The notes beneath the pieces are model-generated. The model had not been told where the DNA came from. It did not search any database and saw nothing but the letters and a program-made list of their open reading frames with translations. Shown here piece after piece: positions 2,807 to 32,533 of a DNA stretch of 32,767 bases; position 1 is the stretch's first letter, and each line of letters opens with the position of its first letter. The stretch is from NCBI GenBank assembly GCA_016188205.1, contig JACPIG010000020.1, positions 1-32,767 of the forward strand. The letters are read 5' to 3'. The position numbers and the translations under genes were made by a program. This stretch comes from Candidatus Woesearchaeota archaeon. Its GTDB lineage: Archaea > Nanobdellota > Nanobdellia > Woesearchaeales > UBA10216.

Positions 2807-5389
2807 ATGATAAAATCAAAGGGTTTCACAATCCTCATTTTTTGGTTGCTTCTTTTATCTGTATTCTCCTATGGCACTGAAATGCCCATGGATATTCGAT
2901 CACAAAAAATAGTCGGTGTTGAATTAACTAACTCCTGGCAAGATTACGATATGGACTACCCATATGTTGCATTTAAATCAACATTTAATAATTCGCAAAC
3001 GATATATCTTTACAACATAGAAACTTCTTCTCTTAAGAAAATAGATGAACTCGTAATTGATTGGACTTCATATCAAGAAACAAAAAAAGAGTTAATTGGT
3101 CTTTCTTTTCCAAAAATTAAGAAAAACAAATTAATTTACCTGAGAGAATACAAAAACAAATCATCAGATTTGGTAATTGTTGACTCTAATAAAAATGAAA
3201 TCATTGAGATTATAAGGTTTCCATGGGAAATTCCAAATATAAAAGATTTCGACGAAAATAATCAAAAATATTTATTTAATGGAGATATTTTGATATGGTT
3301 AAGTGACGGCGGCAATACTTATTCCAACTTGTTCAATCCTGATGAAAAATTCATAGTCGGCAGAACATATCCTCGATTACAATTACAGGGAACAAAAATG
3401 TTCTGGAAAGGAGGAGAATGTGAAATGTACGACTTCGCGGGTAATTCAAAAATTTCGATTAAGAGCGGATGTAGAAGTGTCTATGGAGATGTTGCTCTTT
3501 TGGACAATTATGAACTATATAACTTCCGAGAGGATAAAATTGTCAACACTGATTTCAAGAACAAGGATTTAAGTGGTTGCGACAATCAGTTAATACTAAC
3601 AAAAGACGGTATATGGGGTTACAAAGCACCATATGGAGGAGGTTATATCTGTTATTACGATTTAAAAAGTAAATCACTCATAAAAAAGATTGACACCGTT
3701 TCGAGTAATATGAAGTTTTTCACAGCAGATGAAAATCACTCATTAATCGCTTATTTTCAATACCAAAAAGAGCCAACTGAGGAACAAGGGATTTATATTT
3801 ACACTATTGAACGGATGGATTCAGAAAAAATATGCCAAGAATTCAATAGTGAAAGTGACCAAGACACTCTCAAAATGAAAACTTTATGCGGTTTATCAAG
3901 TTCAGAATGTAATTGTAAAACAACTTTGAGTAATAACGGTCAAATCGTAGATGAAGCTTCGACAAGTTTCAGTTTGATTGATTTTGAAAAAGAAAATGCA
4001 ACGAAGAAGATAAACACTCAAAGCAATTCTATTTTGGACAGCTATAATGAAAAATTAGAAACAAAAAAACAACTTATCCAAAGACAAGCTGCCGCTAAAA
4101 TAGTTGCTGAATCTGAAAAAAGAAGAAATCAAACTATAAGCCTCGTATTTTTTATCGTTGTTGCAACAATCTCAGGAATTCTAATAGTGAAAAAAATAAA
4201 TGCGACTATTGTTGAAAGAAAAAGAAACAAACTTGATAAATTATTGAGTAAAATAATTGGGGAGCCGGGACTGGAAGTAATAGCTTTAATGAATGACGCG
4301 GAAAATAATTTTATTAAGAAAAATTATGACTTAAGTCTAATAAATGCTGAAGAAGCATTGAAAAAACATCAATTATCTAAAAAATCATCAAAATCCAGTA
4401 AAAACTTAGTGAAGCTTGAAGGTAAATGGATAACATTTAGCGAAAGCCAAAAAGCTAAGGGGCTTATAAGTTTTGAAGGAAAGTGGATTACTAAAGAAGA
4501 ATTAGAAGAAATTAAACGGAAAAGGTTTGAGAAGTTACAAATTTCTAAAGGACTTGAAAAATACCAAGGGAAATGGGGGTCTCCCAAACAAGTAAAAGAA
4601 TGGAAAGAAATAGATGTAGGAATACAAACTGATTTTCAGCATTTAAATCATTTCCAATTTGAACGTTTTGTATCGATTGTCTTTGAAAAAATGGGTTATC
4701 AAACATATGTTACTAGGAAAACGGGAGATTATGGAATCGATGTAGTTGCAAAAAAAGGCGATGAAATAATTGCGATTCAGGTAAAACAAAACGCTAAAGG
4801 CAACAATGTTGGGAATGTTATTGTTCAAAATGTATTAGGGTCTATGAGGAAGTTCAAAGCAGAAAAAGCAATCATAATTACAACTTCAGATTTTACTATT
4901 CAAGCCAAGGAGCAAGCAAGAGACGAACCCATAGAGCTATGGAATGGAAAGTATTTCAAAACCTTAGTTAGAAAATATTTGATTGATTCGGGATCTGAAA
5001 TAGCTTCAAAGGAAAAAGATGAAAATCCGGATTTAATTTATAAAGCATTAACCAAATTAAAAAATAATGGAGATAGAGATTCAGGCTTTATCACTTTTGA
5101 GATTGATAAAAATAGTTGGCTTCAATGTTTATTATCAGAAAATGGACTAACTTTATACATGCCTTATGAGTTTAGAATAGAGTCCATATTAGTTTCATTT
5201 GGATTCAGTAAAGTAAACAAACCTTATTCCGAATTAACTGAGAAAGAATACATTTCTGATGAAGAGGAAAGCCCAAAAATGATTTACGCCCATTGCAGGC
5301 ACAACGTTGATTTATGTTCTAATATTACTAAGAAAATATTTTTAAATAATGATAAAACTATAAAAATAGAGTATGAATTAAATGGATAA
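2807..5389 (+). CDS. Membrane-spanning protein: N-terminal signal/anchor, repeat-rich extracytoplasmic region, central TM helix, coiled coil, 3x GKW repeats, Mrr_cat-type PD-(D/E)xK nuclease domain, unknown C-terminal domain
   Basis: 860-aa ORF at ~30% GC versus ~45-50% in the flanks. Central TM helix LVFFIVVATISGILIV. The nuclease block FERFVSIVFEKMGYQTYVTRKTGDYGIDVVAKKGDEIIAIQVKQ...IIITTSDFTIQAKEQA...IELWNGKYF matches the Mrr catalytic-domain pattern. Confidence 0.75.
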   Translation: MIKSKGFTILIFWLLLLSVFSYGTEMPMDIRSQKIVGVELTNSWQDYDMDYPYVAFKSTFNNSQTIYLYNIETSSLKKIDELVIDWTSYQETKKELIGLSFPKIKKNKLIYLREYKNKSSDLVIVDSNKNEIIEIIRFPWEIPNIKDFDENNQKYLFNGDILIWLSDGGNTYSNLFNPDEKFIVGRTYPRLQLQGTKMFWKGGECEMYDFAGNSKISIKSGCRSVYGDVALLDNYELYNFREDKIVNTDFKNKDLSGCDNQLILTKDGIWGYKAPYGGGYICYYDLKSKSLIKKIDTVSSNMKFFTADENHSLIAYFQYQKEPTEEQGIYIYTIERMDSEKICQEFNSESDQDTLKMKTLCGLSSSECNCKTTLSNNGQIVDEASTSFSLIDFEKENATKKINTQSNSILDSYNEKLETKKQLIQRQAAAKIVAESEKRRNQTISLVFFIVVATISGILIVKKINATIVERKRNKLDKLLSKIIGEPGLEVIALMNDAENNFIKKNYDLSLINAEEALKKHQLSKKSSKSSKNLVKLEGKWITFSESQKAKGLISFEGKWITKEELEEIKRKRFEKLQISKGLEKYQGKWGSPKQVKEWKEIDVGIQTDFQHLNHFQFERFVSIVFEKMGYQTYVTRKTGDYGIDVVAKKGDEIIAIQVKQNAKGNNVGNVIVQNVLGSMRKFKAEKAIIITTSDFTIQAKEQARDEPIELWNGKYFKTLVRKYLIDSGSEIASKEKDENPDLIYKALTKLKNNGDRDSGFITFEIDKNSWLQCLLSENGLTLYMPYEFRIESILVSFGFSKVNKPYSELTEKEYISDEEESPKMIYAHCRHNVDLCSNITKKIFLNNDKTIKIEYELNG

Positions 5390-6393: not shown

Positions 6394-6423
6394 GCGGAAC
6401 TCCAGTAGTCAGCCCGCTATTAT
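6394..6423. repeat. Copy 1 of a perfect 30-bp direct repeat GCGGAACTCCAGTAGTCAGCCCGCTATTAT
   Basis: Exact match to 6607..6636, read directly from the sequence. Confidence 0.95.
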
Positions 6424-6466
6424 ATTAAATCGCATTAATTTTCGAACTTTTGATATGCGATTTAAT
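6424..6466. repeat. Hairpin a: 12-bp perfect inverted repeat ATTAAATCGCAT / ATGCGATTTAAT with a 19-nt loop containing TTTTCGA
   Basis: Read directly. Related in stem and loop sequence to hairpin b. Confidence 0.9.
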
Positions 6467-6606: not shown

Positions 6607-6636
6607 GCGGAACTCCAGTAGTCAGCCCGCTATTAT
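6607..6636. repeat. Copy 2 of the perfect 30-bp direct repeat
   Basis: Exact match to 6394..6423. It lies 30 nt downstream of the moxR stop. Confidence 0.95.
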
Positions 6637-6665
6637 TTTTAGTCTGTTATTCAAACATTTCTATA

Positions 6666-7629: not shown

Positions 7630-8445
7630 CTATGTTCCCTTGGCTATCGCTGTGAAGTAGTTTTTCACTATTTCCTGCTGCTCCCTCGGTATCTTTTCCT
7701 CGTAAGCGGCTGCTGAAACCGCGAATGCCTCTTTCGGCTCGCTGTCGGCAAACTCACTTTCCTCAGCGTCTTTTATCTGCCTTATGTTTATGGAGTCGCC
7801 TGCCGGCTTTATGACCAGTTTAAGTTCTTCTTCGCCGAGCTTTGCTATGCTTGGAGCGCCGAATATGTCGTCCTCGCTTGCCAGCTTCGCGCCCCCTTTT
7901 TTGCCGCCGCCTGCGCCGCCGGGTGTTGGCTCGCCTTTTCCCAGCTCAAAGCTCACGTTTATTTCTGTAGCTGCCTTCACTTTTTCCACTGCCGCGTCTA
8001 TGGGGTCAAGCTTTATTGACACTGGTGCGAGCAGAAGCACGAGGAAGCACAAAAGCGTTATTATGCCTGCTTTTGCAAATGATTTCCTGTCATCCAGGAA
8101 CTCTGCTTCCTCAACGTTTCTGAGTTCTGTCAGGACTTCCTGGTGAAGCTCGTTCACCACCGGGTTTTCCGCGTTTATGTACTCTGCTGAAGTCCTCAGC
8201 CTTTCGTTCAGCCTTGGGTAGTATTCCTCAACCTTTCTTATCTTGCTTATGCTTGCCCTTTTTGCAGTTTCAACTATGAGGTATGCCATGGTTATGGAAA
8301 ACGCGAGTATTGCAGGTATGTTGAATATTGAGAGCACAAGGTATGCTGCAAGGAAAACTATGAGGGCGTCAAGCATTACTGTGAATATTAGTGCCTTGTT
8401 AAGCCCTGCTCTGAGCTCCTTTAGCGCGGTTGCGAGTATTTTCAT
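7630..8445 (-). CDS. Membrane protein of the MoxR/vWA operon with a Gly-rich linker
   Basis: 271 aa. Three predicted TM helices and a PTPGGAGGGKKGGAKL tract. Tightly packed between neighbouring operon genes. Confidence 0.6.
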   Translation of the reverse strand: MKILATALKELRAGLNKALIFTVMLDALIVFLAAYLVLSIFNIPAILAFSITMAYLIVETAKRASISKIRKVEEYYPRLNERLRTSAEYINAENPVVNELHQEVLTELRNVEEAEFLDDRKSFAKAGIITLLCFLVLLLAPVSIKLDPIDAAVEKVKAATEINVSFELGKGEPTPGGAGGGKKGGAKLASEDDIFGAPSIAKLGEEELKLVIKPAGDSINIRQIKDAEESEFADSEPKEAFAVSAAAYEEKIPREQQEIVKNYFTAIAKGT

Positions 8446-8446
8446 T

Positions 8447-8953
8447 TTAGCATGCTTCGTTAAGCCGCTGCCTTAGTGCGCACACCTCTGCTCTCAGGCT
8501 TGATACCCTGGCTTCAAGCTCTGCTGCGTATTGCTGCTGCGTTTTAAGTGCTGATTCGGATGTTGACAGTTCTGATTTTGTTGATGACAGGTCTGCTTCT
8601 GCTGCCTTGAGCTTTGTAAGGGTGTCTATAAGCTCGCTTCTTGTCCGGGCAAGCTCGTCTGCCAGCTTTTCATTGTAGTCGCTTATGTTTGTGTAGAGCG
8701 TGTCAAACTGCTCCTTTGCCTTGGTTTTGAGCTTCAGCTCCTCGTTTACATTGCCAAGCTGGGCTTTTTGCTGCGAGAGGTTGTAGTTGAGCTTGTTTAG
8801 CTGGTTCAGCTTGTCGCCGTAGCTCAGGGACAGGTTCTTGTATGTTACCTGGTAGTAGGTTGTGAGCCCTGCCATCACTCCCAATACGACTATTACGAGC
8901 AGTAGCAGGAACAGGTTTACGTTCCTTCTTATATACGCCATGGCTCTTTTCAC
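8447..8953 (-). CDS. N-terminally anchored coiled-coil protein
   Basis: 168 aa with one TM helix followed by heptad-like sequence. The GTG start at 8953 overlaps the upstream stop (GTGA). An alternative ATG lies at 8941. Confidence 0.6.
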   Translation of the reverse strand: MKRAMAYIRRNVNLFLLLLVIVVLGVMAGLTTYYQVTYKNLSLSYGDKLNQLNKLNYNLSQQKAQLGNVNEELKLKTKAKEQFDTLYTNISDYNEKLADELARTRSELIDTLTKLKAAEADLSSTKSELSTSESALKTQQQYAAELEARVSSLRAEVCALRQRLNEAC

Positions 8954-15891: not shown

Positions 15892-16848
15892 ATGGACATT
15901 GGCGCGGTATGGGCTGAGAAATACAGGCCTTCTGACTTCAGCGAGCTTAAAGGCCAGGAAGAAACTGTGAAGAGGGTAAAGGCGTTTATAGAGCAGCGCA
16001 ACATCCCGCACCTTATGTTCTCAGGGCACGCAGGAACAGGAAAGACGAGCCTTGCAATACTCATGGCAAAGAAGCTCTTCGGACCGGAATGGAGGCAGAA
16101 CTTCCTTGAGCTTAATGCCAGCGACGAAAGGGGGATAGATGTAGTGAGAGTGAAGGTCAAGGACTTCGCAAGGACAAGGGCGATAAGCAACGCGCCTTTC
16201 AAGATAATCTGCCTTGACGAGTCAGACTCCCTGACAAAAGAAGCGCAGCAGGCTCTGAGGAGGACGATGGAGAACTACACAGCCACCTGCAGGTTCATAC
16301 TGATAAACAACTACTCAAGCAAGATAATAGAGCCTATACAGTCAAGGTGCGCAATCTTCAGGTTCAGGCCGCTTGAGGAGGGCGAGCTTGGAGCCATAGT
16401 TGACAGGATAGCGCAAAACGAAGGGCTTAGTATCAGTGGGAATGCAAAAAAAGCCCTGATAGAAGCCAGCGAAGGCGATTGCAGGAAATTGGCCAACATA
16501 ATGCAGAGCTGCGCAGCAAGCTCCAGAACAATAACCGAAGAGCTTATATACTCGGCAGCGTCTATGGCAAAGCCAAAAGAGATAAAAGAAATACTTGTGC
16601 TGTCCATGGGCAAGGGGTTCATAGAGGCAAGGGATAAGCTGCTCAATGCCATGCTGTCACAGGGGCTTTCAGGGCTTGACGTCGTAAAGCAGATACAAAA
16701 GGAGCTGCCCGGGCTTGACATAGGCACTGCAAAAAAGATGCGGCTCATAGACAAGTGCGGGGAAATAGAATTCAGGATGGTTGAGGGCTCTGATGAGTTT
16801 GTCCAGCTTGAGGCTCTTTTAAGCAACTTTGCCATGGCAGAGGATTAG
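15892..16848 (+). CDS. rfcS: Replication factor C small subunit
   Basis: WAEKYRPSDFSELKGQ, Walker A GHAGTGKTS, DEAD-like LDESDSLT and the SRC motif QSRCAIFRF. 318 aa with no intein. Confidence 0.92.
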   Translation: MDIGAVWAEKYRPSDFSELKGQEETVKRVKAFIEQRNIPHLMFSGHAGTGKTSLAILMAKKLFGPEWRQNFLELNASDERGIDVVRVKVKDFARTRAISNAPFKIICLDESDSLTKEAQQALRRTMENYTATCRFILINNYSSKIIEPIQSRCAIFRFRPLEEGELGAIVDRIAQNEGLSISGNAKKALIEASEGDCRKLANIMQSCAASSRTITEELIYSAASMAKPKEIKEILVLSMGKGFIEARDKLLNAMLSQGLSGLDVVKQIQKELPGLDIGTAKKMRLIDKCGEIEFRMVEGSDEFVQLEALLSNFAMAED

Positions 16849-16869: not shown

Positions 16870-19356
16870 ATGGAAAAAGAGGAGACATTCAGGCAGGAAG
16901 TTCAGGGAAAAAACTCGGGCAAAGGCATAAATGCCCCTGTCAGTTCTTTAGGTGAGGAGCTTGTCCTTGCAAAATCCGGCCTTTCAGTTTCGCGCGCAGA
17001 GATAAACTCCCTCGCCAGGCGGATTTCTGAGTTGGAAGAGCTCAACACCAAGCTAAGGGAACACATACTTCTGAGGGATTCCTTTGAGAGGAACCTGGAC
17101 AAGGAATACAAAAGGCAGCTCAGCCAGAAAGACGAGGTGATAAGAAGGCTTGCAGCACTCAGCACAAAAGATGCTCAGGCAGGAATATCAAACAGCACTT
17201 TGGCAGAAGCAAAGCCCGAGCCAGCCCAGGCAGATAGCCAGATTCAAACAAGCAGGGAAGAAGAGCTGAGAAGGCTTGGCGACCACTACAGGCAGAGAAG
17301 CGAAGCGCAGGAAAAGCTCTCCGCACAGCTGGCAGAGCAGCTCAACGACAAAAACACAGCCATACAGAGGCTCAAAGAGTTCGTTTCTGAGAGGGAAAAG
17401 CTGTCGCAGCAGATAGAGGAACAGCTGCAGAAGGAACTTGCTGAAAAGGAAGAAGAACTGAACAGCCTAAAGAGGGCTGGCAGCACAAGAACCGGCAGGG
17501 CTGCAACTTGGCTCAGGGAGCTTGAGCAGGCAAGACAGGAACTGAAGTTAAAGGAAGCAGAAGGCAGGAAGACTGTGCTTGAGCTTGTTGGCCTTAAGGA
17601 AACCGGGGCGATACTCGAAAGGAAGCTCAGGGACAGCGAACAGCAACTGCAGAAGCTGAAGGCAGAGAAAGAAAACCCCGTAGAGGACGAAAAAGCCAGC
17701 CAGCTGGCAAATAAGCTTCATGAGAAGGAAGAGGAAATCCGCCGCCTTACGAATTATTATGCTGACAAGGAACAGGCATACGAGGCAATACAGTTACAGC
17801 TTTCAGACCGCCTCAAGGAGAAAAACCGCGAAACAGAAAGGCTCAAAACATTCCTGGCAGAGAGGGAAGAGCTGTCGCAGAAGGTTGAAGAGCAGCTTCA
17901 AAAGGAAATAGCCGCAAAAGAGTCAGAGTTAAGTGAGCTCAGGCACACAAAAAGCCACGGAAAGGCGCTTATTCTCCAAAGGCAGCTTGAGCACGCATCA
18001 CAGGTCATCAGGCTGAAGGACTCAGCCAACAAAAAAATCCTGCTGGAGCTTGCCTCAGCCAAAGAAACAGGAGCCATACTCTCAAGAAAGCTGAAAGACG
18101 GGCAAGAGCACTCAGAAAGCCTGAAGGCGCAATATGAGAAGATAATTGGCACGATAAAGGCTGACAATGAAAGGATAATGAAAGGGCTCATAGGGGACTA
18201 CAACGCAAGGCTCGCGGCTGCAAAAACAGAAGCAGAGCGCACAAAGGCAGAGCTGTCGGCAAAGGAATCAGAGCTTCAAGTGCATAAGCAGCGCATAGAC
18301 GAGGCCATAAGGGAATTCGGCATAAGGGCGCAGACAGTCATATCCATGAGGGAAAGCATAGAGCCGCTTGAAAAAGCAGCAACACAGGCAGCAACGACAG
18401 CGGCAATCCAGGCAACGCAAGCTGCTCAGCAGGCAACACAGCAACAAGCAATCCCCACACAGGCTCCTGAATCCGGGCACGCAGAAACAATAACAAAAGA
18501 CGAGCTTGAGCAGTACGCCAGCAAGGCAAAGGTGCTGAGAGAAGCGCTCTACAGGAAGGACAGGGAGCTTACAAAAAGAGAAGCTGAGATGAGGCAGAAA
18601 GAGGAAGGGCTTTTATCAAGGGAAAAAGAAGTAAAGGCCATGATAACCACAGCAGAGCAGCGCCTCAAAGAGCTTGAAAGAAGAGAAGACTCAGGAGACA
18701 GAAAAGAGCAGATACTGCTAAAGCAGCAGGAGGCATTCAACCGCGAACTCCAAGCGCTTGAAGCAGCAGGAAGCAGGCTGACAATTGTGGAGTCAGAGCT
18801 GGAATCCCAGCTTACAGTCGCGGCAAGGCAGGCAGCCCCTTCAGTGACTCTGCCCACCCCATTCGCATCAGAACCTATCCAAATTCCCTCTGCGGCAAGA
18901 GAAGCGCCGCAGCAGCCGGAAAGCATAGCTGTAATGGAGCCTGTGCAGCAGAAAACCATTGAAGCAGGAGAAATAAAGGAAATAAAGCAGGAGAAGACGC
19001 TGTTGCAGAAGACAGAGCCAAAGCAGACAATGCCAAAGCCAGCACCAGCAACCGCAATACCCGCGATTAAAGCGCCAGCGATTAAGACATACACGCCAGA
19101 GCAGGCAGCCCCTATGCAAGCCAAGCCAAAGCAGCAACAGGCTTATCCGGCAACAGCACCAGAAAAACTTGCTGGCGGCTTAACCATCAACCTTGAAGAG
19201 CAAACCCTCGGCTACTCAGAAGTTGAAGAGGTAATGTCAATGATAGACGTTGCTATGCAGCACAAAGAAAGCATTGAGCAGATAAAGAACTCTCTTCTCG
19301 CATCAGGCTACTCAAAGGAAAACGTGGACAAGGCATTGAAAAAGATGAATCTTTAG
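16870..19356 (+). CDS. Long coiled-coil protein with an internal tandem duplication, Q/A/P-rich linker and a small C-terminal helical (UBA-like) domain
   Basis: 828 aa, rich in E/K/Q/L heptads. Two ~140-aa units align (RRLGDHYRQ...LKETGAILERKLRDSEQ vs RRLTNYYADKEQ...AKETGAILSRKLKDGQE). The C-terminal IKNSLLASGYSKENVDKALKKM is UBA-like by pattern only. Confidence 0.7.
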   Translation: MEKEETFRQEVQGKNSGKGINAPVSSLGEELVLAKSGLSVSRAEINSLARRISELEELNTKLREHILLRDSFERNLDKEYKRQLSQKDEVIRRLAALSTKDAQAGISNSTLAEAKPEPAQADSQIQTSREEELRRLGDHYRQRSEAQEKLSAQLAEQLNDKNTAIQRLKEFVSEREKLSQQIEEQLQKELAEKEEELNSLKRAGSTRTGRAATWLRELEQARQELKLKEAEGRKTVLELVGLKETGAILERKLRDSEQQLQKLKAEKENPVEDEKASQLANKLHEKEEEIRRLTNYYADKEQAYEAIQLQLSDRLKEKNRETERLKTFLAEREELSQKVEEQLQKEIAAKESELSELRHTKSHGKALILQRQLEHASQVIRLKDSANKKILLELASAKETGAILSRKLKDGQEHSESLKAQYEKIIGTIKADNERIMKGLIGDYNARLAAAKTEAERTKAELSAKESELQVHKQRIDEAIREFGIRAQTVISMRESIEPLEKAATQAATTAAIQATQAAQQATQQQAIPTQAPESGHAETITKDELEQYASKAKVLREALYRKDRELTKREAEMRQKEEGLLSREKEVKAMITTAEQRLKELERREDSGDRKEQILLKQQEAFNRELQALEAAGSRLTIVESELESQLTVAARQAAPSVTLPTPFASEPIQIPSAAREAPQQPESIAVMEPVQQKTIEAGEIKEIKQEKTLLQKTEPKQTMPKPAPATAIPAIKAPAIKTYTPEQAAPMQAKPKQQQAYPATAPEKLAGGLTINLEEQTLGYSEVEEVMSMIDVAMQHKESIEQIKNSLLASGYSKENVDKALKKMNL
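17266..18150 (+). repeat. Tandem ~435-nt (~140-aa) intragenic duplication within the coiled-coil gene
   Basis: Unit 1 is ~17266-17700 and unit 2 is ~17740-18150. They share the blocks ERLK.F..ERE.LSQ..EEQLQKE.A.KE.EL and L.ELV/A..KETGAIL.RKL.D. Confidence 0.75.
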
Positions 19357-19361
19357 GTTTT

Positions 19362-20309
19362 CTATCCAAGATGCTTGACAAGTATTGTGGCGTCCTCGTG
19401 CTGCTTGTAGTTGAAGCCGAGTTCTATGTTTATGGGAGTCTCAAACTCCCTTCCTGTTGTGCCTGCTGTGCCGAGAACGCAGTTTACAACCCTCTTGTTG
19501 TCAACAATGATCAAGTCTCCCTCATTGCCGCCATTCAGGCTTGTGCAGGCAACGCTGCCAACCCTTGACGAAACCTTGACATGCACGCGATTCCTGTTCT
19601 GGAAGCTTGAGTCGCACAACGCGCCTGAGTGCACAGCTCCAGTGCCCTTTTGCACTATTGAAAACGTGAACGCAATCCTGTCCTGGCCTCCAGGGCTCTG
19701 CTTGAAGTCCTCAATGTGAAGCGGCGAGCCGGAGTTTGAAACACTCTTTGCCTCGTCAACCTTGCACGTCGGCTCCTGCCCGAACCTGGGCAGCTCTTTC
19801 TGCACGCAGAACTGGACAGTTGAGTTGGTCTGATAGCGGTAGCAGATGTCAGCCCTCAAAGTGAACTGTGTGTTGCCGGGCAACGAATGCCTGTATTTGA
19901 AGGGCTCCTCGCCAGCGCCCCCGAAAGTTATGTGCACAGGGTCGCCATTGACGCACTTGCCTTCTTGGTCCTTGTGCGTGCTTGTAAGCCGCTCACTAAT
20001 CACCTTTGCATAATCAGGGCCGCCGAAATCAACAGGGCTTATGCCGGAAAGCTCAATCCTTGCCTCATTAGCCTCAATCGGGTGCTCGCCCTTGTTGAAC
20101 AGGCGCAGAGTTACATCAAAAGGGAACTGGGCGCCGTCAAAAACCTCGGAAGGCGGGCTGCCCTCAACAAACTTCATCTCCAAGCCGTCAAGCCCGCCGC
20201 AGAAAGGGGTTGTTCTTGAAGCAGGCTGCTTGTTGCCAGTGCAGCCATACAGAAAAACAAGAGCCACAACTGCAAGCGCAAGATACACCCTTTTTGAAGC
20301 CATAAGCAA
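19362..20309 (-). CDS. Secreted lipoprotein, paralog family member 1 (unknown function)
   Basis: Lipobox-like LVFLYGC. Shares the blocks F.EG.PP.E, L.N.G, CYRY..N...FC, SNSGSP and the terminal FNYK with 20341..21285 and 22446..23462. An alternative start MASKRV lies at 20303. Confidence 0.65.
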   Translation of the reverse strand: MLMASKRVYLALAVVALVFLYGCTGNKQPASRTTPFCGGLDGLEMKFVEGSPPSEVFDGAQFPFDVTLRLFNKGEHPIEANEARIELSGISPVDFGGPDYAKVISERLTSTHKDQEGKCVNGDPVHITFGGAGEEPFKYRHSLPGNTQFTLRADICYRYQTNSTVQFCVQKELPRFGQEPTCKVDEAKSVSNSGSPLHIEDFKQSPGGQDRIAFTFSIVQKGTGAVHSGALCDSSFQNRNRVHVKVSSRVGSVACTSLNGGNEGDLIIVDNKRVVNCVLGTAGTTGREFETPINIELGFNYKQHEDATILVKHLG

Positions 20310-20340
20310 AAAACAGGGAAACGGTTATATAAATTTTTCC

Positions 20341-21285
20341 CTAAGAAGGCGCTCTTACAATCTCAACAGTCTTTGAAATTGAGTCCCTGTAGCCGTACCT
20401 GAGCTTTACGCTCAGGGGCGTGTTGAATGCTGGCGTGTTCTTGAACCCTGCCATGTCCAGCTCGCAGAATACGCTGCGCTTTCCGCTGATAAGCTTAATC
20501 CTGCCGCTGGTAAGCGGCTTGCAGGTTGAGGTTATGTCGCGGTCAGCAACCCTGACTTCCTGCAGGCTTATCTCGTCAATCTCCTTGAAAGAAAGCCCTG
20601 CGCTGTAAGGATTGCAGTTCTGGCTGCCCTGCTCGTACACAGTTCCGCCGCCAGCATTTGAAACGCTGATAACAAACCTGAGCTTGTCCGTAGTGGGGTT
20701 AAGCTCAATCTTCGTGACTGCAACAGGAGCGCCCTGGCCTCCGGAAAGAGAAACGTCCTTTGTAGAGCAGACCTTCTGCTTTGAAGTCACGCCGAACGGG
20801 TCAGAATCAATGCACACAAGAGCAACAGCAAGAGTCTCGTAAGAATAGCACGAAGTCACCTGGATTGTCGGCTTGTAAGTGTCAATCCCCGGCTTGAGCG
20901 CAACATCCCCTGGAAACTCCTTAATCTCAAACTCGCCCTCAGGGTCAAAAGTGCCCCTGCCGCCAAGAGCGCCAATGCCGTCAGAAGTCTTCATGCCTGT
21001 AATTATGTTTGGGTCAAAGCCGGAAAGATAAACGTTTCCGCCGAACGTGCTGCCGTCAATGGTTGTTGCGCCGGCATTCTTGAGCTGCACAGCCACAGTG
21101 AACTTGCCCTCGCCCAGAAACCTCGCCGGAGGAGTTCCAGGCACAAAGCTCAGCACAAGTCCCTTTGTCCCTGTCCTGAACTTCTCAACGCCGCTCTTGG
21201 AATCCTTGATACCGACTTGACCCGTGCAGCCTGCAAACGCAACCATCAGCACCACAAGCAAAACAAAAACCAGCCTTTTATCCAT
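20341..21285 (-). CDS. Secreted lipoprotein, paralog family member 2
   Basis: Lipobox VAFAGC. SCYSYETLAVALVCIDSDP...KVCSTKDVSLSGGQGAPVAVTKIE is nearly collinear with member 3. Confidence 0.7.
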   Translation of the reverse strand: MDKRLVFVLLVVLMVAFAGCTGQVGIKDSKSGVEKFRTGTKGLVLSFVPGTPPARFLGEGKFTVAVQLKNAGATTIDGSTFGGNVYLSGFDPNIITGMKTSDGIGALGGRGTFDPEGEFEIKEFPGDVALKPGIDTYKPTIQVTSCYSYETLAVALVCIDSDPFGVTSKQKVCSTKDVSLSGGQGAPVAVTKIELNPTTDKLRFVISVSNAGGGTVYEQGSQNCNPYSAGLSFKEIDEISLQEVRVADRDITSTCKPLTSGRIKLISGKRSVFCELDMAGFKNTPAFNTPLSVKLRYGYRDSISKTVEIVRAPS

Positions 21286-21355
21286 TTTGAGAATTAATTA
21301 TCGGCTGCTTATTTAAATATTGCTGTTGAAAAGCGCAGAATCCAAAGATATAGAT

Positions 21356-22405
21356 TTATGCATCCGGAAAATTCCTCATCGACATCACACGAGGTCTTGG
21401 TGTAAGGTCAGTTAAAACCTTTATCGGGCCTGAGGCAAAGTAATTGGCCAACCCTGCCATGGTCGCGTCCCTGTCAACGGTGGGATGATAAGGAAATGTT
21501 CCCCTGATTCTCACAGCGCCGTCAGGATTCTTTTCAATGGCAACAAAAGCAAAATCGAGCAAGCCATGCACGCGTTCTGAATAAACAAATCCGTCCATTG
21601 TATGTGCGTTACCGCAGTAAACAATGGAATCCCTTGGGTCTTTTATCATATCACTAATCCAGCGCTCGCGCAGATTCTCCTCTCTGCGGGCGTTAAGAAG
21701 TTGAACCACGCCAGCAGCCCCATTAGAGCCGGTAATAGCTGCGAGTCTCTCTGTCTGAACTCCGGTCAATTTCAGGTAAATGTCCTGTTCAAACGGGCAT
21801 AAACGCACGTCTACCCGGGTTTTTGCCGCTTCGTGGCTATAAGCCTGGACTGCAAGCATTGCGGCAAGCATCTCGTCATCCACGTTTCCAAGATCAACAA
21901 AAAACTCAGGAACAATGGCCATTTCAGCACGTTGTTCCTCCAGCATGTCGGGCTCATTCACGCCATATTGTGATAAGATTTTTCTTTCAGCTCTGCGAAC
22001 TTTCTTTTCGCCAAGGATTGAGACCATGCCTTCCAAATCTTCTCTTGTGTGGGTAAATGAGGATAGGGTTCGCCAGCCTATGTCTATAGGCGGCATGGGT
22101 GGAACGCTGCCATGCGAAGATCGCTTTAATTCCTTCAGATACCCACCAACCAAGCCTCTCATCAGCCCGCAGTCATTTTCTGTCCAGCCGTCGGCATACA
22201 GGTTAACAGGGCTATATATGGCAGAAGCAATTGTCAGAAACAGGTTTCTGACATAAACTACGTCATGAAGTTCCCTGAGTTGAGAATAAGCGGATTGCAT
22301 GCTTTCAGCCATCTGAAAATGCGGGCTTTGGACAACCAAAACCAAGGGCATTAATCCAGCTGGAGTTTCTGTCGCCGATGGATTTGCTGTTGCCATTAAT
22401 CCCAA
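21356..22405 (-). CDS. Hypothetical soluble protein (349 aa) embedded among the lipoprotein paralogs
   Basis: Long ORF with no TM helix or signal peptide. Weak motif-level resemblance only (LVLVVQSPHFQMAESMQS ... VYCGNAHT) to TraB/ChaN/Tiki-type folds. Confidence 0.55.
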   Translation of the reverse strand: MGLMATANPSATETPAGLMPLVLVVQSPHFQMAESMQSAYSQLRELHDVVYVRNLFLTIASAIYSPVNLYADGWTENDCGLMRGLVGGYLKELKRSSHGSVPPMPPIDIGWRTLSSFTHTREDLEGMVSILGEKKVRRAERKILSQYGVNEPDMLEEQRAEMAIVPEFFVDLGNVDDEMLAAMLAVQAYSHEAAKTRVDVRLCPFEQDIYLKLTGVQTERLAAITGSNGAAGVVQLLNARREENLRERWISDMIKDPRDSIVYCGNAHTMDGFVYSERVHGLLDFAFVAIEKNPDGAVRIRGTFPYHPTVDRDATMAGLANYFASGPIKVLTDLTPRPRVMSMRNFPDA

Positions 22406-22445
22406 TGGTATTCTTGAACTTTATATTTTTTGTGCTAAACACCGC

Positions 22446-23462
22446 TTAATACCCAACCTCCCTTGTAACAGTTACTTCTTTGGAAATCGTTGTTGTGTAC
22501 CCGTAATTAAAGGTTATTGTGAGCGGGGATGTGTAGCTTGGGATTGATGCGTCAATCTTGTCCTCGTCTTTTAGGCTGCACCGAACAAAATCCTCCTTGG
22601 AGCGAAGCCTTATGGGGTTCGGGGAGCAAACAAGCTCCTTGCCTGAGAGGGAAGCGGAAACTGTTGCGATGTTCCAAATCCTCTTGAAAGCCTCTGAGTC
22701 TCGGTTTGAGACAAGTTCGGAAGAGCATGCAGAGCTCATGTCAGCCGAAGGGTTGAGCACTTCGCCGTCGCCAGTGTTCTTGATGTAAATAACATATTGT
22801 GGCTTTACAAACGCAATCCTTTCCCCGCTGCCCTCAGGAAAAATCTTTGCTTCAATCTTGGTAACAGCCAAAGGAGCGCCCTGGCCTCCTGAGAGAGAAG
22901 CGTCCTTCACAGAGCAGACCTTCTTTTTCTGGGACAAGCCAAGCACGTCAGTGTCTATGCACACATCAGTCTTTACGTCTGTCCTGTACTTGTAGCACAA
23001 TGTAGCGAGAACTATTGACTTGTGCTTTTCAGACTGCCCCTCCCTGAATGGCTTTGTGGAGCCGTCAAAAACCTCGATGCCGCTGTCGCCTCCGGGGTTG
23101 AAGATGCTTTTGCCCTTAAGCGAAAAAGCGGTTTTGAAGCTGTCAAGCTTCATGTAGTCCTCCTCAGACGTCAGCACAACCCACCCGTCCTCAACGTCAA
23201 AAGCGCCCTTGTTGCTGAGCTTCAGAGCTGCCTTGAAAGGATAGCTTCCCCCACTCTTGAAAGGCGCAAGAAGCTCTGCAGGAGGCGCATTGGGAAGAAA
23301 CTCAACCTTCACTCCCTCAGTTCCGCTGTGCACAGCAGCATAAGTAAATGGCAGCTTTGCGCTTACATCCTTGTCACCCCCTTTTCCAGGGCTGCCTGAG
23401 CAGCCTGATATAAACACCGCCAGCACTACCAAAAACACAATAGTTAGGCTCTTCATCATCAC
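22446..23462 (-). CDS. Secreted lipoprotein, paralog family member 3
   Basis: Lipobox VFISGC. Contains LCYKYRTDVKTDVCIDTDV...KVCSVKDASLSGGQGAPLAVTKIE and the terminal FNYGYTTTISKEVTV. Confidence 0.7.
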   Translation of the reverse strand: MMMKSLTIVFLVVLAVFISGCSGSPGKGGDKDVSAKLPFTYAAVHSGTEGVKVEFLPNAPPAELLAPFKSGGSYPFKAALKLSNKGAFDVEDGWVVLTSEEDYMKLDSFKTAFSLKGKSIFNPGGDSGIEVFDGSTKPFREGQSEKHKSIVLATLCYKYRTDVKTDVCIDTDVLGLSQKKKVCSVKDASLSGGQGAPLAVTKIEAKIFPEGSGERIAFVKPQYVIYIKNTGDGEVLNPSADMSSACSSELVSNRDSEAFKRIWNIATVSASLSGKELVCSPNPIRLRSKEDFVRCSLKDEDKIDASIPSYTSPLTITFNYGYTTTISKEVTVTREVGY

Positions 23463-25590: not shown

Positions 25591-25598
25591 TTATAAAT
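25591..25598. promoter_or_regulatory. TATA-like box TTATAAAT between the 695-aa gene start (-) and cloverleaf element A (+)
   Basis: ~48 nt upstream of ATG 25546 on the minus strand and ~40 nt upstream of element A on the plus strand. Confidence 0.35.
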
Positions 25599-25634
25599 CT
25601 TTCTTTTGAGAGACAAAGTCAACTAACGAGTGAT

Positions 25635-25737
25635 AGCCAAGCTGAGCCCTTGTCAATAACAAGGGTTACTTTGTTTCCCCCTCGCTTACCGTGGGGGAGA
25701 CAAAGTAAGTTCAGCATTACTGAACCTCAGCTTGGCT
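25635..25737 (+). ncRNA. Cloverleaf/four-way-junction element, copy A (unclassified)
   Basis: Closing stem AGCCAAGCTGAG/CTCAGCTTGGCT (12 bp). H1 is CCCTTG-TCAATAA-CAAGGG. H2 is TTACTTTGTTTCCCCC-TCGCTTACCGT-GGGGGAGACAAAGTAA (16 bp with one T.G). H3 is GTTCAG-CATTA-CTGAAC. There are no unpaired junction nucleotides. The strand was chosen because the single wobble is G.U only on the plus strand. Confidence 0.55.
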
Positions 25738-25805
25738 TTAATCAACAGTTTTGCCAATCAACTTGACTTCACCCTTTTAAGAACCAGCCCGGCATTCGTG
25801 ATTGA

Positions 25806-26066
25806 TTAGTTATTGTTTTTCAGCAGAGCACCAATAACTGACATTTTTTGGCCCAGATCGCCTATTCTGCTGGCGGAACTATTTGCAAATTTAACTGCAT
25901 GTACAACGTCTTGTGTTCTTGGGGTTTGAACTTTCGCAAGCAGGACTGTAGCGGTCGTCAATTCACAAATGCACGCCTCCATCTGCGCTAATACCGCAAG
26001 TAACTCTTTCCGTTCTATCTCAGACAGCCCTCTTTCTTTTCTTTCGTTCGCTCCATTGTCAGCCAT
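25806..26066 (-). CDS. Small hypothetical protein (86 aa), co-oriented with and 9 nt downstream of the pilin-like gene
   Basis: ORF only, with a helical and charged N-terminus. No recognisable motif. Confidence 0.4.
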   Translation of the reverse strand: MADNGANERKERGLSEIERKELLAVLAQMEACICELTTATVLLAKVQTPRTQDVVHAVKFANSSASRIGDLGQKMSVIGALLKNNN

Positions 26067-31603: not shown

Positions 31604-31678
31604 AAAAGAAGCCAGGGGCGTTTATAAATGTTTTTGCAGCGTGACACTGTAAAGTGTACGTGATATTGATAAACGATG

Positions 31679-31779
31679 TTGTCGGCTGCGGTTAGCTCAA
31701 AGCTAACTTATTTTCTCTCCCCCACGGTAAGCGAGGGGGAGAGAAAATAACCTGAGCATTGCTCAGGCGCAGCCGACAA
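31679..31779 (-). ncRNA. Cloverleaf/four-way-junction element, copy B (inverted relative to copy A)
   Basis: Plus-strand reading: TTGTCGGCTGCG | GTTAGC-TCAAA-GCTAAC | TTATTTTCTCTCCCCC-ACGGTAAGCGA-GGGGGAGAGAAAATAA | CCTGAGC-ATT-GCTCAGG | CGCAGCCGACAA. All stems are perfect. The apical 21-mer is the exact reverse complement of that in copy A. Confidence 0.55.
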
Positions 31780-31877
31780 ATCCGAAGTGGCATATCACGA
31801 AAAGGTGACAATGCCGCATAAAGGAAAAATTATTAAACAATACTCCACCCTGATAGAAGCAGCCAAGACTGTAAGCG

Positions 31878-32183
31878 TTGGAAAGGCAAATGAAAAAGTT
31901 AGAAGAACTTCAAAAGAAGCTCTCTCAAAACAAGAATATGCTAAGGGAGAAGTATTATGTCAAAAGCATAGGCATATTCGGCTCTTTTGCAAGAGGGGAG
32001 CAGAAAAAGGGCAGCGATATAGATGTGTTAATAGAATTCAACAGGCCCATAAGTTTTTTCAAGTTTATTGAACTGGAAAATTGTCTTGGCGAACTTTTGG
32101 GCGCAAAGGTTGATTTAGTTTCAAAGAAGGCGCTTAGGCCATATATAGGCGGGCGAATATTGAAAGAAGTTGTAAATGTATGA
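31878..32183 (+). CDS. MNT-type nucleotidyltransferase (antitoxin-like partner of HEPN)
   Basis: GIFGSFARGEQKKGSDIDVLIEF matches the minimal NTase motif G-S-x-A-R-G-x(n)-D-x-D. Confidence 0.85.
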   Translation: MERQMKKLEELQKKLSQNKNMLREKYYVKSIGIFGSFARGEQKKGSDIDVLIEFNRPISFFKFIELENCLGELLGAKVDLVSKKALRPYIGGRILKEVVNV

Positions 32184-32189
32184 GGGGAG

Positions 32190-32531
32190 ATGAGAGATTA
32201 CAGGGATTACATCAGCGACATTTGGGAATCCATAAGCGACATAGAGAATTTTGCAGCCGGTCTGAACTTCAATGATTTTCTAAAGGATAAAAAAACAATA
32301 AACGCCACCATAAGAAGCCTCGAAATAATCGGTGAAGCGGCAAAGAAAATACCGAACAGAATAAGGGCAAAATACCCCGAAATTCCATGGCAAGAAATTG
32401 CTGGCATGAGGGACAAACTCATTCACGAATATCATGGAGTGGACTTGGAAATTGTCTGGACAGTTATAAAGGAGGACTTGCTCCCTTTAAAGTCCAATAT
32501 TAAAAGGCTTGTTAAGGATTACGGTGTGTAA
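32190..32531 (+). CDS. HEPN domain protein (DUF86 type, toxin-like)
   Basis: R-x4-H motif in MRDKLIHEYHGVD. Lies 6 nt downstream of the NTase gene. Confidence 0.85.
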   Translation: MRDYRDYISDIWESISDIENFAAGLNFNDFLKDKKTINATIRSLEIIGEAAKKIPNRIRAKYPEIPWQEIAGMRDKLIHEYHGVDLEIVWTVIKEDLLPLKSNIKRLVKDYGV

Positions 32532-32533
32532 TC

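Follow-up and report, generated by a model that had tools for sequence, protein, structure and literature searches.

Integron attC sites keep their structure while their sequence drifts, and one strand of the site acts. Each consists of one imperfect hairpin that includes extrahelical bases and has conserved R and L boxes at its foot, and attC sites stand in arrays near IntI, where they accompany small cassettes that often carry toxin-antitoxin genes. Palindromic repeats and miniature inverted-repeat transposable elements (MITEs), among them REP/BIME, ERIC, Correia, bcr1 and the IS200/IS605-derived PATEs, are intergenic, multi-copy and patchy in close relatives. Perfect four-helix junctions of RNA occur in the hairpin ribozyme, the U1 small nuclear RNA (snRNA) and domain IIIabc of the hepatitis C virus (HCV) internal ribosome entry site (IRES), and very stable hairpins are typical protectors of RNA ends. 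Here we describe a cloverleaf-shaped intergenic element of about 100 nt in a 32.8-kb chromosomal fragment of a Woesearchaeota (DPANN) archaeon. This fragment, the whole stretch of DNA that was analysed, is called the window below, and it carries two copies of the element, designated A and B. The likenesses drawn between the element and known systems reflect established knowledge of those families and are not database matches.

The DPANN archaea are uncultured, and to our knowledge almost nothing is known of their non-coding RNAs or of the exchange of DNA by such small genomes. It is unusual for one design to combine a gap-free junction with helices of conserved length and an apical hairpin that does not vary. 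If the element is an RNA, it would represent a new family with a clean logic of scaffold plus recognition hairpin; if it is a DNA site, it would point to a new, structure-specific means of bringing toxin-antitoxin and other cassettes into archaeal chromosomes. With three carrier genomes, all from the same type of habitat, its distribution is narrow and its general importance limited, and its interest lies with specialists in RNA motifs and in archaeal mobile DNA.

Structure and stability of copy A

Copy A occupies positions 25635-25737 on the plus strand, and in the RNAfold structure each of its 103 nt is either helical or part of a hairpin loop. The 12-bp closing stem (25635-25646 paired with 25726-25737) encloses three hairpins that abut directly, with zero unpaired bases at the junction. 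These are H1 (25647-25665; 7 bp and a 5-nt loop), the long arm H2 (25666-25708; 16 bp, a U.U mismatch, two C-G pairs and a CUUAC pentaloop, with a pyrimidine-rich 5' strand) and H3 (25709-25725; 6 bp and a 5-nt loop). The H2 loop TCGCTTACCGT lies at 25682-25692, where the two additional C-G pairs flank CTTAC, and the sole non-Watson-Crick pair is T25675.G25699. A sequence-only reading of this DNA had described the same four-way junction within 25610-25737, including the capacity of the long-arm loop to add two C-G pairs around a pentaloop and a single T.G pair on the plus strand, and our fold reproduces all of these features. Its sizes for H2 and H3 hold as well, and the first hairpin differs trivially, having 7 bp and a 5-nt loop rather than 6 bp and 7 nt.

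The predicted minimum free energy of copy A as RNA is -66 kcal/mol, compared with -30.5 +/- 3.5 kcal/mol for dinucleotide shuffles (z = -10.2; 0 of 200 shuffles). The complementary minus strand scored z = -8.5, and DNA parameters returned the same fold at -41.1 kcal/mol (z = -12). In a sliding-window scan copies A and B emerged, by a wide margin, as the two most stable 120-nt segments of the window. A custom scanner for a closing stem enclosing three directly abutting hairpins was run over both strands of 561 kb of fetched DNA. Gap-free four-way junctions of 41-42 bp were found only in copy A (41 bp), copy B and one homologue from another genome (L002, described below), the best background structure reached 29 bp, and no gap-free junctions with other sequences turned up in this structure-only scan. 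The fold of copy A is thus real and statistically robust, with covariation in independent genomes as detailed below.

Copy B and homologues in other genomes

Copy B, a second copy to which the sequence-only reading had also referred, was located with a repeat finder and a motif search at 31679-31779. It spans 101 nt, forms the same complete gap-free junction (42 bp in the scan, z = -11 to -13) and lies on the minus strand, inverted relative to copy A, a point that the earlier reading had missed. Among 185,579 GTDB species representatives, the 19-nt core of the H2 tip matched two, the loci L001 and L002, which both belong to metagenome-assembled genomes (MAGs) of groundwater Woesearchaeota and contain one exact tip match per genome. 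The L002 copy (5211-5309) is a full gap-free cloverleaf with an extra 10-bp outer helix past a 7-nt bulge. In L001, H1 and H2 are kept, H3 is enlarged and branched, and the closure is looser.

A covariance model (R1) built from the hand-curated alignment of A, B and L002 scored copy A at 113.5 bits and copy B at 108.9 bits on the minus strand, and detected no copies beyond the known ones in about 0.85 Mb of fetched DNA, the 19 syntenic loci of five relative lineages among it. Searches in larger collections gave a similar picture: a 17-mer had 35 matches in JGI metagenome contigs and a degenerate 17-mer had 20 matches in IMG/VR, all of them chance matches in which the fold is absent, and blastn against phage and plasmid collections returned no match. 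In the literature the loop sequence matched an unrelated primer only, and a keyword search retrieved nothing pertinent. Mimicry of, or antisense pairing with, ribosomal RNA was discarded as an explanation of the loop, which is unmatched in the 16S and the partial 23S sequence of L002.

Small open reading frames (ORFs) that cross the element are incidental by-products of the conserved tip. The peptide encoded by the tip, PPRLPWGR, is shared by no protein family and yielded no candidates in large protein collections. Its single match in a library of representatives, P0241, was rejected as a chance match: it is the translation of a CRISPR array, and the repeat of this array is not related to the element in its DNA. 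The array in question (L068, 342-1053; repeat ATTTCAATCCCCGCCTTCCGTGAGGAAGGCGAC, period 67) is entered in the public collection as a protein of 225 aa, the translation apparently using a code in which TGA is a sense codon.

Conservation and covariation

When the four loci were compared pairwise by BLAST together with their 500-nt flanks, homology was confined to H2 and a few junction-proximal bases, and the flanks are unrelated. The 25-nt H2 tip TCCCCCTCGCTTACCGTGGGGGAGA is identical in A, B and L002; with L001 included the invariant core is the 22-nt CCCCTCGCTTACCGTGGGGGAG. The main alignment is ungapped, hand-curated and consists of A, B and L002, with L001 added for H1 and H2 only. In the three-sequence alignment 98.4% of the cells form standard pairs, and changes on both sides were observed in 20 of 43 pairs, as opposed to 7.3 +/- 2.1 in shuffled alignments and 0-4 when the partners were slid by 1-3 columns. 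The closing stem contributes nine such pairs out of 12, its pairing being kept between copies and its sequence not. When L001 was included, the H1 plus H2 alignment was 98% paired, with compensatory changes in 10 of 25 pairs.

Helix lengths are conserved throughout (closing stem 12, 12 and 10 bp, H1 7 bp, H2 16+2 bp, H3 6-7 bp). The conserved pairs beside the junction are a G-C pair, then CC/GG (the only conserved part of H1), then UU/AA, then GUU/AAC (the junction-proximal pairs of H3), and the arm order H1-H2-H3 is consistent with the orientation of the loop in all four copies. The sequence-only reading had named further homologues, and compensation of their stem changes, among the tests of its proposal, and L001 and L002 are homologues of this kind. 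Because the changes are compensatory, the helix lengths kept, the tip invariant and the arms oriented, selection appears to maintain pairing, a fixed geometry and one particular hairpin tip.

The wobble pairs bear on the strand. The four copies contain four, all of which are U.G on the strand with the loop TCGCTTACCGT and A.C mismatches on the opposite strand, a one-sidedness with p ~ 0.06 under a strand-neutral model; in addition, the top strand folds better in copy A and in L001. Selection probably acts on one strand of the element. The sequence-only reading had taken its single T.G pair as a hint of a plus-strand RNA, and the four wobbles lean mildly in that direction, with the reservation that the bias is compatible with single-stranded DNA to the same degree.

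A small structured RNA as the favoured reading

Our tentative preference is for a horizontally acquired small structured RNA that carries an invariant hairpin on a rigid junction scaffold. Most likely the element is lineage-restricted and acts as a folded single strand, the acting strand being the one with the H2 loop UCGCUUACCGU. A transcript of about 100-170 nt would fold into two coaxial helical stacks at the perfectly paired four-helix junction, in which the closing stem, H1 and H3 would serve only as a scaffold of fixed length whose sequences may drift as long as pairing and length are retained. The scaffold would display the tip of H2, an invariant apical hairpin made of five C-G pairs, the U.U mismatch, two C-G pairs and the CUUAC loop, at a distance of about 18 bp from the conserved junction, where this hairpin would meet a sequence-specific partner, most likely a protein. 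The oriented architecture, the one-sided wobbles and the conserved geometry speak for an RNA, and transcription of the top strand is plausible at all four loci: copies A and B directly follow divergent promoter regions, the L001 copy begins 50 nt after a co-oriented ORF, and the L002 copy has a co-oriented ORF upstream.

A considerable number of observations weigh against this reading. Transcription of the element is something that we infer, as are the protein partner and the scaffold role of the junction, and no promoter-like motif and no U-tract or oligo-T terminator is common to the four copies at a fixed distance. For a typical functional RNA the duplex is unusually flawless: wobbles make up just four of some 170 pairs, and tertiary contacts would find no bulge, internal loop or unpaired junction base to use. 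The fold keeps its strength when DNA parameters are applied or the complementary strand is taken. Not every copy has the perfect junction, since L001 has no gap-free closing stem. The distribution is extremely narrow, with two of the GTDB species representatives and no genuine match in JGI or IMG/VR, and 19 syntenic loci, which come from several samples and represent five relative lineages, lack the element. Finally, both window copies lie in segments created by insertion or deletion, one of them beside a mobile toxin-antitoxin cassette, as expected of a mobile or recombination element that works at the DNA level.

Upstream sequences were inspected for promoters. The sequence-only reading had pointed to a TATA-like box upstream of copy A, and this box, TTATAAAT, is present at 25591-25598. 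Since the box and its adjacent bases are conserved in the element-free relative L038/L039 and lie 45-52 nt upstream of the ATG of a divergent 695-aa gene (25546, minus strand), it is the promoter of at least that gene; its use in the direction of copy A as well is possible, but it does not count as the element's own promoter. AT-rich boxes occur 35-60 nt upstream in three of the four copies at varying distances, and none is present at L001. Shared leader or trailer motifs, C/D-box-like motifs and outer helices of the GAAATCC type were considered and dropped as 6-8-mer coincidences at chance level.

Genomic setting and a possible role at the DNA level

The genes of the window encode, according to Pfam, Pelota, GatA, translin, RFC, RNase HII and type IV pilus-like proteins, and the best matches of its Pelota are proteins of Woesearchaeota MAGs. 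A BLAST comparison with the relative L039, whose Pelota is 86% identical, revealed collinearity at 83-86% nucleotide identity from position 15986 to the end, or about 17 kb. Only three lineage-specific segments interrupt this region, and two of them carry copies A and B, which therefore reside in recently inserted or replaced DNA, a circumstance missed by the sequence-only reading. The segment with copy A (25608-25775) has flanks that are about 84-86% identical to L038/L039. The segment with copy B (31641-32532, about 890 bp) replaces a 44-nt DUF87 promoter region of the relatives and also contains an MNT/HEPN toxin-antitoxin pair (31878-32183 and 32190-32531). In those relatives whose fetched DNA reaches translin, this gene is followed directly by DUF87, or by LemA in one relative. 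The third segment (21323-22450) holds an extra gene absent from L039. Its 349-aa ORF (21356-22405, minus strand) has no Pfam match and sits between paralogous secreted-protein genes.

The HEPN protein has its closest homologues, at only 70% identity, scattered over archaeal phyla, as expected of a mobile cassette. A fixed tie between the element and the toxin-antitoxin pair was considered and dropped: no MNT or HEPN gene adjoins any of the other three copies, and the cassette cannot be traced through HEPN homologues as distant as these. Site A is not empty in the relative L038/L039, where a different structured repeat of 145-150 nt is found. In L038 this repeat is located at 8333-8477 and 16617-16759, and it is also present in L039 and L040. 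It consists of two hairpin modules, each closed by 11-13 bp, and has no Rfam match; its second copy in L038 is 88% identical, inverted and 8 kb away, between a radical-SAM gene and a topoisomerase gene. Because a relative holds a different repeated structured element there, site A is a hot spot for small structured elements.

A further rearrangement was detected in L002, where a perfect 49-nt tandem duplication (5276-5374, 2.0 copies) begins within the 3' strand of H2. The duplicated unit runs from the last part of the H2 3' strand through H3, the closing strand and the outer strand to a point 8 nt beyond, and could be real or an artefact of assembly. When folded, the duplication produces an enlarged, branched H3 that resembles L001.

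These findings make a DNA-level element possible, if doubtful, and only a little less probable than the RNA; most of the data agree with either of the two. The element would then be a folded single-stranded DNA or an extruded cruciform that serves as a structure-specific site of recombination, transposition or priming, with a recombinase or HUH-type enzyme encoded elsewhere recognising the invariant imperfect hairpin tip, much as happens at attC sites, at the ends of IS200/IS605 elements, in REP/RAYT or at single-strand origins on rolling-circle plasmids, and bringing small cassettes into intergenic hot spots. Such a role is favoured by the placement of A and B in two of the three lineage-specific segments, the joint arrival of copy B and the MNT/HEPN pair with its scattered homologues, the alternative repeat with its inverted second copy in L038, and the duplication that starts inside H2 in L002. 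The near-perfect Watson-Crick complementarity, the equally good fold with DNA parameters and the precedent of attC sites, which likewise keep structure, drift in sequence and act on one strand, are in line with it. On the other hand, Pfam identified no gene for a recombinase, transposase, Rep protein or reverse transcriptase in the window or beside L001 and L002, and target-site duplications, common termini and common flanks are all absent. Copy number is low (two in the window, one exact-tip match in each representative genome), conservation is concentrated at the tip and not at the base, where elements of the attC or terminal inverted repeat type are cut, and copies A and B have diverged too far in three helices to be products of recent transposition.

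A more specific version of the DNA-level reading, which we consider unlikely, treats the cloverleaf as the recombination site of a structure-specific cassette-exchange system of DPANN archaea, so far not described, that would resemble attC in function and be architecturally unrelated to it. Site A would then hold an empty cassette and site B the MNT/HEPN pair, both in promoter-proximal hot spots, with the enzyme encoded elsewhere.

Transcript ends, neutral palindromes and the upstream repeat

All four copies are intergenic. Copy A, viewed on the minus strand, directly follows an operon that ends at 25806, and the L001 copy, with its co-oriented ORF 50 nt upstream, precedes the TATA box of Rpo11. 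This placement would suit a cis-acting element of the transcript, that is, a 3' end, insulator or stabiliser that blocks read-through or exonucleases between packed genes, as very stable hairpins often do at RNA ends. We nevertheless regard such a function as unlikely. The orientation relative to neighbouring genes is inconsistent across the four copies, a U-tract does not consistently follow the element, and the relatives manage without it at the same sites. Moreover, a simple protector needs no invariant 25-nt tip, no fixed helix lengths and no conserved junction.

Selfish or neutral palindromic DNA without a cellular function, its complementarity renewed by template switching or fold-back synthesis, is quite an unlikely explanation. 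It would account for near-perfect palindromes with no spacer bases between the hairpins, for their confinement to flexible intergenic spots and for the tandem duplication in L002, of which the enlarged branched H3 of L001 looks like a product; template switching in quasi-palindromes could also yield paired changes of the kind counted above. What it leaves unexplained is why the 25-nt tip (22-nt core in L001), the junction-proximal pairs and the helix lengths are conserved across three genomes while the rest has diverged, why the arm order is oriented and consistent, and why all wobbles fall on one strand.

Least tenable is a plus-strand RNA switch, in which the 10-mer GAGACAAAGT (25610-25619, plus strand), an exact repeat of 25697-25706 situated 15 nt upstream of copy A with a chance expectation of about 1.3%, would set up an alternative fold in competition with the H2 3' strand; this model is highly improbable and was rejected because the forced pairing costs 42 kcal/mol (-24.3 versus -66 kcal/mol) and no comparable repeat exists near B, L002 or L001. 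Of the claim made for this 10-mer in the sequence-only reading, the exact repeat stands and the competitor role does not, and we judge the repeat to be incidental or a remnant.

Other features of the window and of related loci

Several further features were noted in the course of the analysis. A low-GC island at 2807-5389 (31% versus about 47-50%) carries the gene for an 860-aa protein that has a restriction endonuclease domain of the Mrr type and is probably foreign DNA or a defence gene. The spacer between DUF58 and MoxR, which is AT-rich and unusually long (about 330 nt), contains a 38-nt direct repeat (6394-6431 and 6607-6644; 92% identical, 213 nt apart) that consists of GCGGAACTCCAGTAGTCAGCCCGC followed by a TATA-like run and may represent a duplicated promoter or a small RNA locus. 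Three paralogous genes for cysteine-rich secreted proteins or lipoproteins of about 315-340 aa, with common DNA repeats and no Pfam match, occupy 19362-23462. They are preceded by a gene for an 828-aa coiled-coil protein (16870-19356) that has internal repeats spaced by 471 nt and likewise no Pfam match, and the synteny of these genes is conserved among relatives. In L002, the spacer between the 16S and 23S genes harbors a 109-nt tRNA (1446-1554) that is matched by the Rfam model and missed by ARAGORN; it presumably contains an intron, as is typical of tRNAs in DPANN archaea.

Comparison with known systems

The view of the sequence-only reading that the element resembles no recognised RNA family was borne out: Rfam 15 had no match at the gathering threshold in the window and chance-level matches only over the element at E <= 10, the best sub-threshold scores being those of MIR167 (23.8 bits, threshold 100) and of small nucleolar RNAs (14-17 bits). 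With a tRNA cloverleaf the element shares four helices, namely a closing stem and three hairpins. Its arms of 12, 7, 18 and 6-7 bp, however, are joined without linkers and show no D, anticodon or T loop signatures, and for tRNAs ARAGORN called 0 genes in the window and Rfam gave no match at the gathering threshold or at E <= 10.

The perfect four-helix junctions of the hairpin ribozyme, U1 snRNA and HCV IRES IIIabc are alike in having no unpaired junction nucleotides, which implies pairwise coaxial stacking of the helices. Those RNAs need internal loops or conserved unpaired bases, whereas the element has none and no sequence similarity to them. The core of a junction ribozyme is absent, as the helices are free of internal loops except for the one U.U near the H2 tip and no Rfam match was obtained. 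Features of a riboswitch or attenuator were not seen either, the competitor sequence being confined to copy A and core nucleotides all being paired.

Among single-stranded DNA elements, the inverted terminal repeats of parvoviruses and the single-strand origins of rolling-circle plasmids come close in several respects: they are nested palindromes with a long stem and abutting arms, present a conserved apical motif on variable stems and depend on orientation in single-stranded DNA. They are located at the ends of virus genomes or on plasmids beside Rep genes, in contrast to the element, which has three arms, is chromosomal and intergenic with housekeeping genes on either side, and is not accompanied by any Rep gene in view. 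The ORFs neighbouring the element lack a reverse transcriptase domain as would accompany a retron, and neither a Y1 HUH transposase (TnpA/RAYT) nor TnpB is encoded in the window or at the L001 and L002 loci.

With palindromic repeats and MITEs the element has in common that it is an intergenic palindrome in the range of about 100-150 nt, patchy in close relatives and associated with insertion hot spots. Those families are multi-copy with a common sequence or terminal repeats and often target duplications. The element, by comparison, is low-copy and its outer stems differ and compensate; homology is limited to H2, neither site A nor site B has a target-site duplication, and no transposase was seen.

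Integron attC sites offer a functional parallel, in that structure prevails over sequence, one strand is specified and, as with the small cassettes that attC sites accompany, one window copy borders a toxin-antitoxin cassette. The R''/R' boxes (RYYYAAC/GTTRRRY) are absent from the element, its closing stems differ between copies and contain no extrahelical bases, and no integrase was found by Pfam among the ORFs of the window, where copies A and B are 6 kb apart with housekeeping genes between them and without a cassette array. An attC site is a single imperfect hairpin with basal recognition boxes, standing in arrays near IntI, and the element is a flawless four-way junction with a conserved tip, without arrays and with no integrase in view. 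Likeness in logic does not amount to membership, and each of the tested families has defining features that the element lacks. With a small chance of being something categorically new, the element is best classed as a new structured intergenic family within the broad known kind of structured non-coding or palindromic elements.

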